A stretch of DNA of 64,000 nt, taken from assembly GCA_963796055.1 (NCBI GenBank), contig CAWCKH010000004.1, forward strand, positions 1,600,001 through 1,664,000, in the 5' to 3' direction. The position numbers and the translations under genes were made by a program. This stretch comes from an uncultured delta proteobacterium (GTDB lineage: Bacteria; Myxococcota; Myxococcia; Myxococcales; Myxococcaceae). The notes beneath the pieces were generated by a model that did not search any database, had not been told where the DNA came from, and saw only the letters and a list, made by a program, of their open reading frames with translations. Position 1 is the first letter of the stretch. Each line of letters opens with the position of its first letter. This document shows positions 1,909 to 44,634 of this stretch, in pieces.

Positions 1909-2646
1909 GTGGTTCGACCTGCGTCGCTCCTCCCTTTCGCCCTGCTCGGTGCGTCCCTGGTCGCCTGCAAGGGCGAGGTGCCGGTTCCAGGCAAGGAGCG
2001 GGTGGGGACCTACCTCCTGCAGTCGGTGGGTGACCCGCTCTCCAGCGACTGCTCTCCGGCCATCCTCGACGCCGGCCTGGACGCCGGGGCGATGAACGGA
2101 CTCTTCGTCGACGCCGGGGTCGTCTTCTCGGTCACCTACCACCAGACCACCACCCCCGATGGAGGAACGCGTCTGCCGGACGGTGGGCCGGTCCTCCCTT
2201 ACGACGCCGGCTACCTGACGTTCATCGAGGGCTCGGGCTCGGAATACGGGGTGATCAACGGGCAGGTCATCGACGTGTCGGCCGTCGCGCCGCGGGTCTT
2301 CGCCCTCTGCAACTGCACCGGGCTCGAGCCGCCGGACATCCAGGTCCAGGAGCGCAACCTCATCGCCCTTCTGAGTGACTCGCAGGCGCGGGAGCTCACC
2401 GGCTCGGTGACGACCTGTGCCTCACCGGACGTCGTGCTCGACGGCGGCATCCCTCCGCCCGGCGGTGGAATCCTCGGCCCGCGGGACCCGAACGGGATCT
2501 GGAGCGTGCCGCTGGTCTGCGGCGTCACCGAGGAGCAAATACAAATACTTCGGGGCTACGACCCCGTCCAGGACGCGGGATGCAGTCCCGAGTGCCGGTC
2601 GTGCACCATGCGCTTCTCCGTCCAGGGAAGGCCGCTGCAGCCATGA
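1909..2646 (+). CDS. Cys-rich lipoprotein of unknown function
   Basis: Signal peptide with lipobox LVAC, several Cys, repeated DAG/DGG motifs. Stop overlaps the queC start (ATGA). Confidence 0.75.
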
Positions 2647-3332
2647 GCGCCCCCCGCGCGGTGGTGCTGCTCTCCGGTGGCCTGGATTCGGCGACCTGCC
2701 TGGCCATGGCCCGGAGCGAGGGCTTCCTCTGCAGCTGCCTGCTGGTCGACTACGGGCAGCGGCACCGGGTGGAGCTGGACCGCGCGCGGGCGGTGGCCCG
2801 GGCGCAGGGCGTGGAGGACGTGCGGGTGGTCCAGGTGGACCTCCGCGCCATCGGGGGCTCGGCGCTCACCGCGGACATCGCCGTCCCGAAGGACCGGGCC
2901 GAGGCCGAGCGCGGGACGGGGATCCCGGTCACCTACGTGCCGGCGCGAAACACGCTGTTCCTCGCGCTCGCGCTGGGGATGGCGGAGACGCTGGGGGCCA
3001 CCGACCTCTTCATCGGGGTGAACGCGGTGGACTACTCGGGCTACCCGGACTGCCGCCCCGAGCTCATCCGGGCCTTCGAGTCCCTGGCAAACCTCGCGAC
3101 CCGGGCCGGCGTGGAGGGCGCTCGGTTCCGGGTGCACGCTCCGCTCTCCGGCATGCGCAAGGCGGAGATCATCCAGGCGGGCGCGCGGCTCGGCGTCGAC
3201 TACGCGCTCACCCACAGCTGCTACGACCCGGACCCGGAGGGGAAGGCCTGCGGGCGGTGCGACAGCTGTCTCATCCGGCGCGAGGGCTTCCGGGCGGCTG
3301 GCGTGCCGGACCCGACGGCGTACGGAGCGTGA
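2643..3332 (+). CDS. queC: 7-cyano-7-deazaguanine synthase
   Basis: [31 protein letters not shown] and C-terminal SCY...CGRCDSC Zn motif. ATG at 2643. Confidence 0.95.
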
Positions 3333-3934
3333 GTCCGGGACTCCTCACCGTCCTCGCCCTGCTCGCCCTCGCTGGTGGCGCGGGGACTCCCGGTGGTCTG
3401 GTGGAGGCCAGCACGCGGATCCCGGGCCTGGTGGTCGAGCTGCGCTACGCGACCGAGGACAACTTCCTGGGGCGGGCGGTGTACCCCGAGGGCGCGCGCT
3501 GCCTGCTCCTCCCGCCGGTGGTGGAGCGCCTCGCCCGGGCCGCGCGGACGCTCGAGACCCACGGCTTCGGGATCAAGGTCTGGGACTGCTACCGGCCCAT
3601 CCACGTGCAGTGGGCGATGTGGAAGCTGGTTCCCCGCAAGGGCTACGTCGCCGACCCGCACACCGGCAGCAACCACAACCGGGGCGGGGCGGTGGACGTG
3701 ACCCTGGTGACCCTCGATCGCGCGGCGGTGGACATGCCCACCCCGTTCGACACCTTCGGTCCCGCGGCGCACCACGGCAGCACCGCGGGCACGGCCGAGG
3801 CGCGGGCGAACCGCGAGACGCTCCGCCAGGCGATGGTCGCCGCGGGGTTCCGGGCCAACCGGATGGAGTGGTGGCACTACGACGCGCCCGAGGCCCGCGG
3901 CGCGCCGGTGCTGGACGTGCCGCTCGATCGATGA
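3329..3934 (+). CDS. ddpX: D-alanyl-D-alanine dipeptidase (peptidase M15D, VanX/DdpX family)
   Basis: [25 protein letters not shown] and EWWHY motifs. GTG start overlaps the queC stop (GTGA). Hydrophobic N-terminus. Confidence 0.9.
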
Positions 3935-3967
3935 GCGCAGTGGCATTCCGCTAGGCTCGCCGCCTCC

Positions 3968-5350
3968 GTGCTCGCGTTCGTCCGCTCACATCCGTTGACG
4001 GTGGCCGTCCACCTGCTGGGCCTGGCGATCGGTCTGCGGGTCCTGGTCACCCGGCGGAGTCCGCAGAGCCTCATGGCGTGGATCCTGGGCCTGCTGGTGA
4101 TGCCCTGGGCGGCGGTCCCGCTCTTCCTGCTCTTCGGCGCGCGGAAGCTGCCGCGGAGCGTGCGCGGAAAGCACCGGCCGCTGCTGCCCCCGGGGGGCCA
4201 CGCGGGCCTGCCAGACGGTCACCCGGCGGCGGACGTGCCCCGGGTGCTGCGGACCGAGGGCGTTCCGGGGGTGCGCACCGGGAATGCCTTCGAGCTGCTG
4301 GGCACCGGAGAGCGCGCCTTCGAGGCCCTGCACCGGGAGATCGCCGCAGCCCGGCAGAGCATCGACCTCACCATCTTCATCCTCGGCGACGACGAGGTCG
4401 GCTGGAGCGTGGTGCAGGGGCTCGCCGCTCGGGCCCGGGCCGGGGTACGGGTGCGGCTGCTGGTCGATGCGGTGGGCTCGCGGCCCATCCGACGGCGGGC
4501 CGCCCAGGCGCTCCGGGCAGCGGGTGGCGAGCTCCGGGTCTTCATGCCGCTCCTCCATGCGCCACTGAAGGGGCGTACCAACCTCCGGAGCCACCGCAAG
4601 GTCGCGGTCTTCGATGGACGTCGGGTCTTCATGGGCGGGATGAACATGGCGCTCGAGTACATGGGACCCACGCCCTGGCCAGGGCGGTGGCGGGATCTGG
4701 CCTGTCTGCTGGAGGGCCCGGTGGCGAGCGACGCCGAGCAGCTCTTCGCCGCCGACTGGGGTTTCGCCGGAGGTGCGGAGACGCCGCCGCCAAACGAGCT
4801 CTCGCGGCCCGCCGGCGAGGCGGTGGTTCAGCTCGTCCCCAGCGGTCCGGAGATGAAGACCGACACCTTCTACGACGCGCTGCTCACCGCGCTCGCCTCG
4901 GCACGGAGCCACGTGGCCTGCGTCACGCCGTACTACGTCCCGGACGACGTGGTGCAGCACGCCTTCGTGCTCTGCGCGCGGCGCGGCGTGCGGACCGAGC
5001 TGGTGATGCCGGCGCGGTCGAACCACGCTCTGGCCGACAACGCGCGTCGGGGCCTGATCGCCGAGCTGGCGGAGGCCGGGGTGGTGCTGCACTGGTACGA
5101 CCGGATGGTGCATGGCAAGGCCATGGTGGTCGACGAGACGGTGGCCTATCTCGGGTCGCCCAACCTGGACATGCGGAGCTTCTTCCTCAACTACGAGGAC
5201 GCGCTGCTCCTGTACTCGCCGCCGGAGATCGCCGCGGTTCGCGGGTGGATCTCCGCGCTGCGCTACGAGTGCTCGACGACGCAGACCCCGCCCAGCCGGC
5301 GCTGGTGGCTGATCGAGGACTTTGCCCGGCTGATGGCCCCGGAGCTCTGA
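3968..5350 (+). CDS. cls: Cardiolipin synthase (phospholipase D family)
   Basis: Two N-terminal TM segments and two HKD motifs (HRKVAVFD...GGMN; HGKAMVVD...GSPNLD). Confidence 0.9.
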   Translation: MLAFVRSHPLTVAVHLLGLAIGLRVLVTRRSPQSLMAWILGLLVMPWAAVPLFLLFGARKLPRSVRGKHRPLLPPGGHAGLPDGHPAADVPRVLRTEGVPGVRTGNAFELLGTGERAFEALHREIAAARQSIDLTIFILGDDEVGWSVVQGLAARARAGVRVRLLVDAVGSRPIRRRAAQALRAAGGELRVFMPLLHAPLKGRTNLRSHRKVAVFDGRRVFMGGMNMALEYMGPTPWPGRWRDLACLLEGPVASDAEQLFAADWGFAGGAETPPPNELSRPAGEAVVQLVPSGPEMKTDTFYDALLTALASARSHVACVTPYYVPDDVVQHAFVLCARRGVRTELVMPARSNHALADNARRGLIAELAEAGVVLHWYDRMVHGKAMVVDETVAYLGSPNLDMRSFFLNYEDALLLYSPPEIAAVRGWISALRYECSTTQTPPSRRWWLIEDFARLMAPEL

Positions 5351-5427
5351 GCGCGGCACCCGGGTCTGGACTGCGGACCGGTTCGGCCGCATTGTTGACA
5401 TCGCACCATGTGAAGGGGGGGTGTTCG

Positions 5428-6523
5428 ATGCGTGCGCCGGTTCTGCTCCTGACTTCGGGGCTGGTCCTGGGACTTCTGTCCTGCAGCAGCGAGGAAGCCC
5501 CCTGCGCGGCTCCGGATGGATGCATTGCCGCGCGCCAGGTCGCGGGCAGGTGCCAATGCCTGGACTGGCAGATCATCTCGGACGAGGTGGTCGCGATCAG
5601 GTATCTCGTCACCGGGGTACTGATCCCCGCGCCAGGTGGGTCCAGCAGCGTGACCTACGGCCAGGTTCCGGACCCGCAGCAGCCGCCGTTCACGTCGGCG
5701 CGCTCCCAGCAGGGCACGCGGCTCCGGGCCGTGCTCCGGGAGGTCGACGGCAAGGAGCGGGTGCTGCAGGCGGAGGTCCCCACCGAGAGCGGCCCTAATC
5801 CGACCGAGGTCCTCGAGCGGCTCGGCGGCACGACGCTCTCCTTCGGCCTGTCCCCTGGCGCAGGGTTCGGACTCGGCGGCGGCAGCGATGTGCATCCTCC
5901 GGCCGAGGACTGGATCCTCGTCTGGACCAACCCGACGCTGCGTCTCGTCCGGGATGCGGGGGGCAACCTCCGCGGCATCTGGGGGTGGAGCGGCAACTGC
6001 GTGCACTCCCCGTGCCCCGGGCCCGAGGTTCTCCGGATTCGTACGGGCGCGTTCGATGGCACCTCTCCGGCCGATCCAGGGGAGAAGGCCTTTCTCCAGT
6101 CACTCAGCCCCATGGAGAACGCGGCCATCCGCGCGTTCGATCGCTTTGCCGCGTCTCCACCTCCGAGCAGTGCGGAGATCGATGCGGATTCCGCGCTTCA
6201 TCCGCCTCGGGGAAGGCGTCGTGGACCTGCAGGGCTCGAGCACTCCATCCACCGCGTGGAACCCGTGCCCCGGGGTGGCGACCGACGGGGACTTTCCCGT
6301 GCTCGCCAGCACCGAGATCCCCGTGGGGCGGAACGGGGAGACCGTGGTGGTGCAGCAGAGCTGGCTGACCACCACCATCGACTGCTCGATGCAGGTCTGC
6401 GGGCTCGTTCTCGGGACGGAGACCGCCGGCTGCCGGATGACGCCGACCATTTACCTGGACCGGCTCTTCGGCATGCTCGGATTCCTGACCGGCACGGTGA
6501 GCGCGGCGTGCGAGCCACCATGA
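5428..6523 (+). pseudogene. Cys-rich lipoprotein interrupted by a 1-nt frameshift near 6190 (pseudogene or sequence error)
   Basis: ATG 5428 with lipobox LLSC. The protein-like sequence switches frame at GAT GCG GAT T CCG CGC TTC and continues in the 5888..6523 frame. Confidence 0.6.
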
Positions 6524-41591: not shown

Positions 41592-42917
41592 TCAGCCGGT
41601 GGCGGCAACCGGAGCGGGCGCTCGCAAGGGCTCGGCGACTTCCCGTGGAGGCCGCAGCTCCCGCTCCAGCGCGACCGAGCGGAAGTAGTCGCAGGCGGGA
41701 GTCGCCCGCCGCTCCAGGGTGGCGAAATCCACGTGGTAGAGGCCGAAGCGGGGGCCCCAGCCCTCGAGCCACTCGAAGTTGTCGAGGAGCGACCAGTAGA
41801 GGTAGCCCCGCACGTCGATGCCCGCGGTCCGCGCCTGGAGCACCGAGGCCCAGTGCCTCCACAGGAACTCGCTCCGGCGGTCGCCCACCCGGTCATCGAT
41901 GCCGTTCTCGGTCACCCAGACCGGCAACCCGTAGCGACGGGTGGAGAGCAGCACCTGGGCGAAGCCCTCGGGGAAGAACTCCCAGCCGATGTCGGTCAGC
42001 CCGCGGTGGAGCGGGTCGCGGTAGTTGAACTCGACGTACGGCGCGCGCCGGACGAAGCGGAGGTGGGCGCGCGTGTAGTAGTTGACGCCCACGAAATCGA
42101 GGCTGTCCCGCGCGCCCTCGAGCGTCTGGCGGGTGGTGAAGAGTCCCGGCATGAACATCCGCAGCTCGCCGGTCACCAGCGCCTCGAGGAAGGTGTGGTT
42201 GTAGGCCTCGTCAGCGAGGCGGACCAGCGCGTGGTCCATCGGGTTCCAGGCACGATCGGCGGAGAAGGCCAGCATGTTCTGGCTGGTGCCGATGGGGAGC
42301 TTGCCGGCGTGGGTGAGCAGCTCCTCGCGGGCCGCCGCGTGGGCCCGCCCGATGTTGCCCAGGGCCAGCATGGCCAGCTTTGGGTCGGCGATGCCCGGAG
42401 GGATGGAAGCCTGCACGTACCCCCCCAGCAGCAGCACCATCGGCTCGTTGAAGGTGAGCACCACCGCGTCCAGACCCCGCAGCACCTCGGCGCAAGCTCG
42501 GGCATAGCGGCGGAAGGCGGCCACGCTCTCCGGGCGATGCCACGGCGTCTCGCGGTGGAACCAGGCCGGGTGCGTGAAGTGGTGCAACGTCACCACCGGC
42601 CGCAGCCCCACCTCGGTCATCGCCACCAGACGCCGGCGGTAACCGTCGAGCGCGTTCTCGTCGAGCCTGCCGCGCTGTGGCTCGATGCGTGCCCACTCCA
42701 GGCTCATCCGGAAGGCAGTGGCGCCGAGATCGCGGGTGAGCCGGTAGTCCTCGCTCCAGCGGTTCCAGTGGTCCACGCCCGCGCCGGCGACGTGCTTCAT
42801 CCTTCCGGCGCGCTCCCACTCGCTCCAGTCGTTCTCGATGTGCCCCTCGACCTGGTACGCGGCGGTGGCGACGCCGAAGACGAAGTCGGATGGGAAGCGA
42901 GGTGGAGGCGCGTTCAT
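41592..42917 (-). CDS. Glycoside hydrolase family 1 (beta-glucosidase)
   Basis: FVFGVATAAYQVEG, TLHHF, TFNEP (acid/base), VTENG (nucleophile), WSLLDNFEW. Confidence 0.94.
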   Translation of the reverse strand: MNAPPPRFPSDFVFGVATAAYQVEGHIENDWSEWERAGRMKHVAGAGVDHWNRWSEDYRLTRDLGATAFRMSLEWARIEPQRGRLDENALDGYRRRLVAMTEVGLRPVVTLHHFTHPAWFHRETPWHRPESVAAFRRYARACAEVLRGLDAVVLTFNEPMVLLLGGYVQASIPPGIADPKLAMLALGNIGRAHAAAREELLTHAGKLPIGTSQNMLAFSADRAWNPMDHALVRLADEAYNHTFLEALVTGELRMFMPGLFTTRQTLEGARDSLDFVGVNYYTRAHLRFVRRAPYVEFNYRDPLHRGLTDIGWEFFPEGFAQVLLSTRRYGLPVWVTENGIDDRVGDRRSEFLWRHWASVLQARTAGIDVRGYLYWSLLDNFEWLEGWGPRFGLYHVDFATLERRATPACDYFRSVALERELRPPREVAEPLRAPAPVAATG

Positions 42918-42987: not shown

Positions 42988-43017
42988 TTGACATGGGGGC
43001 GCTCAGGTCACTACCAT
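42988..43017 (+). promoter_or_regulatory. Sigma70-like promoter of the basic micro-ORF
   Basis: TTGACA (42988-42993), 18-nt spacer, TACCAT (43012-43017). Confidence 0.65.
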
Positions 43018-43072
43018 CCGTGTTCACTCACTCGGCCCGAGTGACGAACACACACCCCGGAGGGATCCACTG

Positions 43073-43153
43073 ATGGCGCCGAAGAAGAAGACCGCGAAGA
43101 AGAAGCCGGCTGCGAAGAAGGCTGCGAAGAGGAAGACGTCGAAGAGAAGGTAG
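43073..43153 (+). CDS. 26-aa Lys/Arg-rich microprotein or leader peptide (MAPKKKTAKKKPAAKKAAKRKTSKRR)
   Basis: SD GGAGG at 43059-43063, ATG 43073, TAG 43151-53, upstream promoter and downstream terminator. Below the ORF-track size cutoff. Confidence 0.75.
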   Translation: MAPKKKTAKKKPAAKKAAKRKTSKRR

Positions 43154-43179
43154 CGGTCACTCTCCTCCGGGAGAAACGG

Positions 43180-43213
43180 ACGGCTCGGCGATTCGCCGGG
43201 CCGTTTCGCTTTT
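43180..43213 (+). terminator. Intrinsic terminator between the micro-ORF and rqcH
   Basis: ACGGCTCGGCG-ATT-CGCCGGGCCGT stem (one G-U) followed by TTCGCTTTT. Confidence 0.7.
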
Positions 43214-43227
43214 CAGGGGTTCCCCAC

Positions 43228-44634
43228 CTGTCGCTCAGACCCACCGAGCTGCGAGACGTGGCCACGGCGCTCGAGCCCGAGCTCGCCGGGGCCGTGGTGC
43301 AGAAGGTCCGCGCACCCTGGCCCGAGCGGCTGGAGCTGGAGCTGCGCCAGCCGGGCAGGACGGTTCGCCTGCTCCTCAGCGTCGAGTCTGGGCTGGCAAG
43401 GCTCTCGGTCATCGAAGCGCGGAGGCCCTCCACGTCTGACACCGTTCCCTCCCCGTGGTTGCTCCGGGCCCGCAAGGAGCTGACCGGTCGCCGACTGTCA
43501 TCCATTCGCTTCACCGGCGCCAGGCAAGTCCGCCTGGGCTTCGAGAAGGGGGGCACGGCGCGCGCGCTGATGGCCGAGCTGGGCTCGCCGGGAGCGCTGC
43601 TCCTGCTCGGAGACGCGGACGTGCCGCTGGCCGCCTCGCACGGGCCGCCGAGGGCTCCCGCGCCTCCCGGCGAGCTGGTGGACGAGGGCGGCCCTCCTTC
43701 ACGCCTCGGCGGAGCGCGCGGGCTCGATGCCGGTCGCGCAGCCGAGGCGCTGGTGGCCGCGCGCGAGTCGGCGGTGCGCCTCGAGGCCCTGCAGCGCGCG
43801 CGCATCCAGCCCATCCGCTCCGCCCTCCAGCGCCTCCGTCGGACCCGGGCCAAGGTGGAGGCCGAGGCGAACCGCGACGCCCTGGCCGAGGAGCACCGGC
43901 GGTGGGGTGAGCTCCTCTCGCGGGCCCTCGACGGGATCCCGCGCGGGGCCCGCTCGGTGCGGTTGACCGAGTGGACCGAGCTGGGCCCGCGCGAGGTGGA
44001 GGTACCGCTGGAGCCAACGCTCGCTCCACGGGCGCAGGTGGAGCGCCACTTCCACCAGTACCGCCGCCTGCTGCGCGGGAGCGCCCTGGCCCGGGAGCGG
44101 CTCGCCGCACTGGACCGGGAGATCGCCGAGGCCGAGCGGGCCCTCGCCGAGGCCGAGGCCAGCACTGCCGCCGAGGTGGAGATACCGGTCGCCCCCGTCC
44201 CGGTGCGGCCTCCTCCTCGCAAGCGCCCGTCGCCGGCACACCGCCCGTACCGGACTTTCCGGACGGCCGGCGGACAGCCGATCTGGGTGGGCCGGGCGGG
44301 CGAGGACAACGCGGCGCTCACCTTCCAGGTGGCCCGCCCGCATCACCTATGGATGCATGCCCGTGGCGTCCCCGGGGCGCACGTGGTGGTGCCGCTGGAC
44401 CGGGGAGCGGACGTCGAACAGGAGACGTTGCTCGACGCCGCGCACCTCGCGCTCCACTTCTCGCGCCTGGCGGGAGAGCCTCGGGGCGAGGTGGCCTGGA
44501 CGCGGGCCCGGCTGGTCAAGCGGGTGAAGGGCGGCGCGCCCGGGCAGGTGACGTACACCGGAGAGAAGGTGCTCGGGGTGCGGATGGAGCCGGCCCGGCT
44601 CGAGCGTCTCCTCCGCTCGCGCGAAGAGCCGTGA
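43228..44634 (+). CDS. rqcH: RqcH/NFACT (Rqc2/FbpA) ribosome quality-control protein
   Basis: NFACT-N (GAVVQKV..P....L.L), coiled coils with GELL...AQ..F..YRR, NFACT-R IWVGR..EDN..LT...WMHARGVPGAHVV. Start is either CTG 43228 (AGGGG 8 nt upstream) or GTG 43258. Confidence 0.82.
   Translation: MSLRPTELRDVATALEPELAGAVVQKVRAPWPERLELELRQPGRTVRLLLSVESGLARLSVIEARRPSTSDTVPSPWLLRARKELTGRRLSSIRFTGARQVRLGFEKGGTARALMAELGSPGALLLLGDADVPLAASHGPPRAPAPPGELVDEGGPPSRLGGARGLDAGRAAEALVAARESAVRLEALQRARIQPIRSALQRLRRTRAKVEAEANRDALAEEHRRWGELLSRALDGIPRGARSVRLTEWTELGPREVEVPLEPTLAPRAQVERHFHQYRRLLRGSALARERLAALDREIAEAERALAEAEASTAAEVEIPVAPVPVRPPPRKRPSPAHRPYRTFRTAGGQPIWVGRAGEDNAALTFQVARPHHLWMHARGVPGAHVVVPLDRGADVEQETLLDAAHLALHFSRLAGEPRGEVAWTRARLVKRVKGGAPGQVTYTGEKVLGVRMEPARLERLLRSREEP

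Follow-up and report, generated by a model that had tools for sequence, protein, structure and literature searches.

Chlamydia Hc2 (HctB) and Bordetella BpH1 consist over their whole length of lysine-rich pentamers with Ala/Thr/Pro/Val spacers, in variable repeat number; Hc2 binds RNA and represses translation, and BpH1 is expressed in growth and repressed later (PMC2848022). Pseudomonas AlgP is described as an abundant, nucleoid-associated protein that binds polyphosphate granules (PMC11894788). A small open reading frame with the Hc2/BpH1 layout is present at positions 43073–43153 of a 64,000-nt stretch of DNA (termed the window) from an uncultured delta proteobacterium of the Myxococcaceae (GenBank assembly GCA_963796055.1, contig CAWCKH010000004.1, positions 1,600,001–1,664,000, forward strand). 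It can encode a 26 amino acid peptide, and it is followed by a terminator and a co-oriented gene of the NFACT family, a homologue of rqcH of ribosome-associated quality control (RQC). This order is that of translation-coupled attenuator leaders, where a short open reading frame precedes a terminator and a co-oriented gene, and a preliminary description of the locus, made from the sequence alone, had proposed a stall-sensing leader that tunes rqcH. The open reading frame is most probably a self-contained housekeeping gene of Myxococcales, a Lys/Ala-rich reading frame framed by a conserved sigma70 promoter, a Shine-Dalgarno (SD) sequence and a terminator. The Myxococcus xanthus orthologue is expressed as an independent, discrete mRNA whose level exceeds that of each EF-Tu gene copy, both during growth and early in starvation. 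The features of the locus, including those of the untranslated regions (UTRs), are:

42988–43017, plus strand: sigma70-type promoter TTGACA-18-TACCAT (motif scan)
43028–43045, plus strand: 5′ UTR hairpin with a TCACTCG/CGAGTGA stem (predicted fold)
43060–43064, plus strand: SD sequence GGAGG (from the sequence)
43073–43153, plus strand: open reading frame of a 26-aa Lys/Ala-rich polycation, a minimal Hc2/H1-tail-like form; orthologue of M. xanthus MXAN_6302
43161–43174, plus strand: small 3′ UTR hairpin, restricted to the genus, with the SD region of the same gene as alternative partner (predicted fold)
43177–43213, plus strand: intrinsic terminator hairpin and U-tract (predicted fold)
43228–44634, plus strand: NFACT-family gene (RqcH homologue) with a probable CTG start; about 90 aa of the presumed HhH region are absent
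41592–42917, minus strand: divergent GH1 beta-glucosidase, a neighbour outside the unit; other families have other genes there

The elements listed in the preliminary description are all present in the sequence: the promoter, the GGAGG, 26 codons with 11 Lys and 3 Arg, the hairpin with its U-tract and the downstream NFACT/RqcH gene. The promoter is the only sigma70-like match in 4.5 kb (0.1 ± 0.5 in shuffled sequences). All 11 Lys codons are AAG, and the Arg codons are AGG, AGA and AGG, the frame ending in AGA-AGG-TAG as had been noted. A genome-wide list, inspected by eye, places the micro-ORF highest in Lys content among stand-alone short open reading frames preceded by an SD. The terminator has a hairpin core at 43181–43203 (−24.8 kcal/mol including flanks) followed by a broken U-tract, TTTCGCTTTT, up to position 43213; a simple terminator scan misses it.

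Conservation was assessed over 91 distinct rqcH-linked coding sequences (88 distinct peptides), a set selected on Lys content and on the SD, so that neither property counts as independent evidence and the presence of an SD in 90 of the 91 copies is circular. A TTG[AC]C-16/18-TAnnnT match is found in 77 of the 91 orthologous upstream regions (27 of 4,550 shuffles), and the inner pairs of the terminator have a probability of at least 0.9 in 76 copies. The GGAGG is invariant in 15 of 15 aligned sequences, and length changes of the micro-ORF within the genus preserve the frame. The 5′ UTR hairpin is kept in 12 of 12 sequences of the genus; similar CACTC..GAGTG hairpins were seen by eye in other genera of the family, and the hairpin is not universal. 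On the 3′ side, positions 43161–43171 are predicted to pair with the SD region (43056–43065) with a probability of ~1 in free RNA. Such SD:3′ UTR pairing is predicted in 15 of the 91 copies (8 in the genus and 7 others); two variants within the genus alter the loop base and retain the local hairpin.

At a locus from a record named M. xanthus (termed L130), the orthologue has 79 aa and is identical to the C-terminal part of the DK1622 record ABF86753.1/Q1CYU6. Gene order, a length of 240 nt and a distance of 97 nt to the NFACT gene, equal in both, identify it as MXAN_6302 (MXAN_RS30530). This locus carries the label “excinuclease ABC subunit A” in the accessible parts of two published data sets (PMC6791715, PMC11980068). 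The micro-ORF had been called unannotated; this does not hold for the family as a whole, where the M. xanthus orthologue is annotated, though wrongly. UvrA has ABC ATPase and zinc-finger domains and ~900 aa, and this identity is rejected for a 79-aa low-complexity protein that displays no Pfam match. An exact look-up of 10 orthologous peptides gave no entry, and a homologue search gave one over-long DK1622 record; RefSeq and the ESM Atlas hold the 79-aa form, so that nothing about annotation is concluded from the blanks. A literature search that left out most subscription papers found no paper by locus tag or accession and no description by topic, and the main text of a barcoded-transposon preprint does not mention the gene.

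The raw reads show a sense depth of 2,400–4,100 over the MXAN_6302 reading frame, 13–28 times the genome mean (a 9.14-Mb genome assumed). The initial 320 nt of rqcH have a depth of 22–63, compared with 15–39 on the opposite strand. MXAN_6302 thus gives a discrete mRNA of ~0.35–0.4 kb, 38–182-fold above rqcH. The ends of the molecules pile up at L130 positions 2545–2554 and 2888–2889, beside the −10 box and the hairpin; the RNA 5′ ends lie 17–26 nt downstream of the −10 box, and sense depth collapses at the hairpin equivalent to that of the window. Read-through of the terminator is at most 0.5–2.6%, or ~0.2–1% above background, figures to which differences in mRNA stability could contribute. 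A run on Logan contigs (X6) cannot show transcript ends or level.

Published values in reads per kilobase per million (RPKM) display the same relationship (PMC6791715, seen in part). At 0 h MXAN_6302 has 6,197 and 6,653 RPKM, rqcH 46 and 38, each tuf copy 2,365–3,241, rplL 845 and 969, and four IHF-labelled genes less than 340. After 6 h of starvation MXAN_6302 is at 5,200–5,490 RPKM while tuf is down to 570–720, tuf and rplL being ~3–5-fold lower; a 4–6-fold fall of MXAN_6302, to 1,100–1,700 RPKM, comes late in development (72–96 h). It should be noted that in all three raw runs ~1% of the reads at L130:2658–2769 have loose ends whose sequence is that of the open reading frame with C converted to T. 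This is most likely a two-colour sequencing artefact, with RNA deamination as the alternative.

The gene is real and tightly linked to rqcH. An NFACT gene was found in 53 of the 61 genomes searched; 54 loci were cut from these, and 50 were left when 4 with less than 700 nt of upstream sequence were dropped. Of these 50, 37 have a co-oriented Lys-rich open reading frame no more than 2.5 kb upstream of rqcH, and in 13 none is seen. It is adjacent to rqcH in 35 of the 37, and 2 have an ATP-dependent DNA ligase gene between; 12 of the 37 belong to the genus of the window and are not independent. Among 80 named loci, the open reading frame is present in records of Myxococcus, Corallococcus, Pyxidicoccus, Archangium and Anaeromyxobacteraceae and in none of those labelled Polyangiaceae, Polyangium or Sorangium. 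The closest named loci (82–86% identity in RqcH) come under the labels of uncultured Myxococcaceae or delta proteobacteria. The upstream neighbour of the micro-ORF varies between families (GH1, ExbD, PGM/PMM, ROK, POTRA).

A DNA pattern for the micro-ORF that makes no use of rqcH matched 55 of 401 genomes, with no match in the controls. For 49 of the 55 the place was examined, and 44 have rqcH within ~200 nt. Of the other five, one has what looks like the start of rqcH where the contig ends, one gives no information and three have no link to rqcH. One of the three is the tail of another protein, which leaves two stand-alone, unlinked homologues, both with promoter-like sites of their own. The first (L230:2582–2641), a 19-aa Lys-rich open reading frame, precedes dnaX and has terminator-like as well as promoter-like sites; its genome belongs to a different class of the phylum. 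The second is in a genome that is 97% complete and in which no rqcH was found. Linkage is thus seen in most places and is lacking for the two stand-alone homologues, and rqcH is often present without the micro-ORF. Outside the order the strict pattern gave 1 match in 107 genomes and 0 of 5 in each of two further sets; it misses the copy in the window's own genome, so that these blanks are no proof of absence. One Myxococcaceae lineage has the ATP-dependent DNA ligase gene directly before rqcH (L097:1617–3023 and L061:1697–2839, both minus strand); in some genomes of this lineage the Lys-rich gene precedes the ligase gene and in others it was not found.

Conservation of the peptide concerns its net positive charge, which follows a five-residue rhythm, and not sequence, length or C-terminus. 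Length ranges 11-fold, from 20 to 221 aa, with a median of 27, and 69 of the 91 copies have 35 aa or less. Lys makes up 37%, Ala 29% and Thr 11% of the residues; 5 of the 3,883 are bulky hydrophobics, and the median net charge is +0.52 per residue. The autocorrelation of charge at a lag of five residues is 0.40 in 67 short and 0.49 in 21 long peptides, compared with about −0.04 to −0.01 (standard deviation 0.04 or less) after shuffling. On a quick RqcH tree short forms are interspersed with long ones, the distribution expected of length variation by gain and loss of repeats. The C-termini vary from KK to acidic or hydrophobic tails.

Two other basic sequences were observed. A second small open reading frame (G000:C3, minus strand, from 26524) encodes 34 aa rich in Arg and Lys, with a GGAGG SD and a hairpin after it; its composition differs. 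A similar basic N-terminal tail is found on a 100-aa protein (G000:C4:398531–398564, minus strand), where the fused domain is presumably of the SWIB/MDM2 type; many myxobacterial proteins begin with such tails.

An independent protein gene is the best explanation (probability about 0.9), and of the possibilities raised in the preliminary description the evidence favours the one it had given as an alternative, an independent histone-H1-like peptide. The product would be an abundant, disordered polycation, a minimal form of the Hc2/BpH1/AlgP-tail type. Its binding to polyanions would be non-specific; most likely it would coat or bridge the DNA of the nucleoid, with polyphosphate or RNA as possible further targets, and it would work like a linker-histone tail or a protein polyamine. 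By analogy with these proteins, a role on the nucleoid or on polyanions is given a probability of about 0.6. The Pfam HC2 cut-off (PF07382, gathering score 40 bits) is exceeded by three of nine longer orthologues (52, 46.4 and 55.6 bits), i.e. 3 of the 4 with ~200 aa.

Several points weigh against this explanation. Protein product, binding and localisation are deduced from DNA and RNA, and the expression data are from M. xanthus and not from the genome of the window, the raw reads being three samples of one study. Neither the 26-aa peptide nor the 79-aa M. xanthus form has a Pfam match, none of 10 basic proteins reaches the cut-offs of NCBIfam NF038052/NF038053, and the HC2 matches are compositional, with homology unproven. 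The polycation has no oligomerisation or globular domain, and 26 residues span only about one turn of DNA. A nucleoid role leaves the strong linkage to rqcH (44 of 49 pattern-found places) without explanation. In most of 10 probed genomes with the DNA ligase gene before rqcH, a single-contig genome included, no stand-alone copy was found, so that the gene looks dispensable there or has diverged.

The leader hypothesis holds that slow, stall-prone translation of the peptide controls read-through of the terminator into rqcH. Order and orientation are fixed, the spacer from stop to start is 63–236 nt (median 80), and positively charged residues are reported to slow ribosomes generally (PMC7829197, in part). 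It had also been pointed out that little room is left for a promoter of rqcH, and most copies indeed have none visible: a −10-like hexamer lies 5–9 nt upstream of only 4 of 65 rqcH starts (1.9% in shuffles; three of the four are in one family). Most copies may therefore rely on read-through, and a small read-through may feed rqcH. A transcription start site for rqcH was not found in four supplements of PMC8844925. The supposed stall signal, in contrast, is not conserved. AGA and AGG are disfavoured in the genome as had been supposed (~6% of Arg codons in 1,940 long open reading frames); tRNA-Arg(TCT) and tRNA-Arg(CCT) are both present. Of the 91 copies, that of the window alone has two such codons before the stop; the last codon is AGA or AGG in 6 copies, 40 copies have no Arg, and with acidic and hydrophobic tails among the C-termini there are no conserved stall codons and no arrest motif at a fixed position. 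All amino acid changes in three of three pairwise comparisons within the genus are single-base Lys/Arg swaps through AAG, AGG and AGA, and in the genus AGG accounts for 35 of 55 Arg codons. A rare-codon stall is thus rejected, its codons being explained by drift from AAG to AGG/AGA. A compact cluster of nine tRNA genes (G000:C4:3118970–3121462) stands apart from other tRNA loci and was possibly acquired.

Attenuation by alternative pairing is likewise rejected, as no antiterminator is predicted. The competing pairings proposed earlier overlap the terminator by only 2 nt at its outer base and form none, forbidding the terminator costs the full 24.8 kcal/mol with no alternative fold, and pairing of the terminator core stays at 0.89–0.90 with a ribosome modelled at each of the 27 codons; these folding tests are equilibrium calculations only. 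A DNA ligase gene lies between terminator and rqcH in 2 genomes, and unlinked homologues exist. The ratio of rqcH to MXAN_6302 climbs from <1% to 4–7% late in development, as a sensor might predict, but this rise is due to the fall of MXAN_6302. Over the time course rqcH correlates with MXAN_6302 at rho −0.88 and with its opposite-strand neighbour at rho 0.83; since it tracks this neighbour it sits at the noise floor, where regulated read-through is neither visible nor fully excludable. In the accessible part of PMC11980068, rqcH is listed as 2-fold up in an mrpC mutant and MXAN_6302 is not listed. A sensing leader is thus very improbable. The retention of rqcH behind the gene may reflect a fixed terminator leak of ~1%, giving a low constitutive supply, or simple inheritance; no sensing step is needed. 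Fusion of the micro-ORF into rqcH by frameshift was also rejected: the frame is open from 43045 here, and in three relatives of the genus the open frames are only 473–475 aa, so that the extension lacks conservation. In the window the rqcH frame has no stop across the micro-ORF (43045–43257), where it reads as Glu-rich, and gene callers could be led to an over-long rqcH.

If instead a structured small RNA were the functional product, with the open reading frame incidental, a discrete and abundant transcript, the family-wide conservation of the primary sequence of the terminator arms and a fold z-score of −2.2 would be accounted for. The transcript also gives a weak match to Rfam sX6 (E-value = 5.5e-4), the only known RNA family found and one under its gathering score; tmRNA is located elsewhere in the genome. 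sX6 itself encodes an 80-aa protein (PMC3300014, in part), and the matching part consists of purine repeats and the terminator. Over the 91 copies the ATG, the SD (a selection criterion), the frame and the stop are retained, length changes keep the frame, and the UTR structures differ between families. It is hardly credible that the RNA alone is the product.

The downstream gene bears on a further possibility. It has Pfam NFACT_N and NFACT-R_1 domains and matches Bacillus subtilis RqcH (E-value = 5e-27). Its start had been placed 15–45 nt past the terminator; this can be narrowed to the lower limit, as the start is probably CTG at 43228, 15 nt after the U-tract, where relatives carry GTG, ATG or TTG before SLRP. 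A Myxococcales RqcH profile (20 sequences) aligns with the NFACT-N, coiled-coil/M (CC/M) and NFACT-R regions of B. subtilis RqcH (E-value = 5e-84) and skips ~90 aa, B. subtilis positions 176–265, which we take to be the HhH region; the canonical four-domain architecture is thus not found. The acidic-Arg pair (D97/R98 in what we assume to be the usual numbering) is D/E-R in many relatives and A-R in the window, unlike B. subtilis, and Ala-tailing is only putative here. The domain order described for RqcH is NFACT-N, HhH, CC/M, NFACT-R (PMC8012679, in part). A survey reports rqcH in most Myxococcota, and its accessible part does not mention the micro-ORF gene (PMC11633108). A search of this genome with PF01479/PF13275 gave six S4 matches, all in longer proteins, and no small stand-alone S4 protein; PF13275 is a poor probe for RqcP, and this negative is no proof of absence. 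The myxobacterial RQC system is possibly atypical.

A basic protein that acts in trans on the ribosome or in RQC, binding rRNA or tRNA on the 50S subunit and possibly replacing the HhH region or an RqcP-type helper, would be consistent with these absences, with the RNA binding and translational repression of Hc2, and with order-wide linkage to rqcH while upstream neighbours change. The mRNA, however, is 15–209-fold above rqcH, far from the ratio of a dedicated cofactor, and it departs from the course of ribosomal-protein genes at 6 h of starvation (rho 0.27 with tuf, p = 0.36). The 11-fold length range and the free exchange of K, R, A and T are unlike a ribosomal pocket, searches of the PDB with the peptide gave no informative match, and a copy is kept in the 97%-complete genome that yielded no rqcH. 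Neither the conserved length and sequence nor the co-regulation of a small basic ribosomal protein is seen. A ribosomal or RQC association is therefore unlikely, and the narrower proposal, a trans-acting partner of a reduced myxobacterial RQC that sits on the 50S subunit or peptidyl-tRNA in place of the HhH region or an RqcP-type helper, is more doubtful still. If true, this narrower proposal would account for the retention of the gene beside rqcH throughout the order, where every upstream neighbour has changed, and a class of Lys-rich micro-proteins that target ribosomes and not DNA would have its first characterised member in this protein. The four readings considered leave a remainder for roles not listed.

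A gene with an mRNA above each EF-Tu copy in M. xanthus, a harmless and genetically tractable model organism, bears a wrong database label (UvrA), and proteomics based on trypsin would miss its Lys-rich protein. If the nucleoid/polyphosphate polycation is correct, the protein would be an overlooked major chromatin component of myxobacteria, and the natural length series of 20–221 aa would be a direct test of how long an H1-like tail must be to act on DNA. The conserved link to an RqcH without the presumed HhH region flags myxobacterial RQC as possibly atypical.

A comparison with known systems places the gene as follows. Attenuator leaders differ from this gene, for which no antiterminator is predicted, stall motif and stall codons are not conserved, length varies 11-fold and unlinked copies exist. 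The C-terminal KPAA-repeat domains of Pseudomonas AlgP and PhaF are disordered polycations of the KPAA type, like the peptide described here, but AlgP and PhaF have a folded N-terminal domain, whereas the basic tract is the whole protein in the present case. Hc2 and its relatives, Bordetella BpH1 and the Burkholderia H1-like proteins (Pfam PF07382; NCBIfam NF038052, NF038053), have 149–237 aa, compared with 20–35 aa in 69 of the 91 copies; the myxobacterial gene has a fixed position before rqcH, and its DNA binding is only presumed. The expression of BpH1 in growth and its later repression are paralleled by the M. xanthus orthologue. The window peptide does not pass the profile tests of the Hc2 family and is for this reason not filed as a member; by analogy it appears to be a minimal variant of the Hc2/H1-tail kind and may work as such a protein does.

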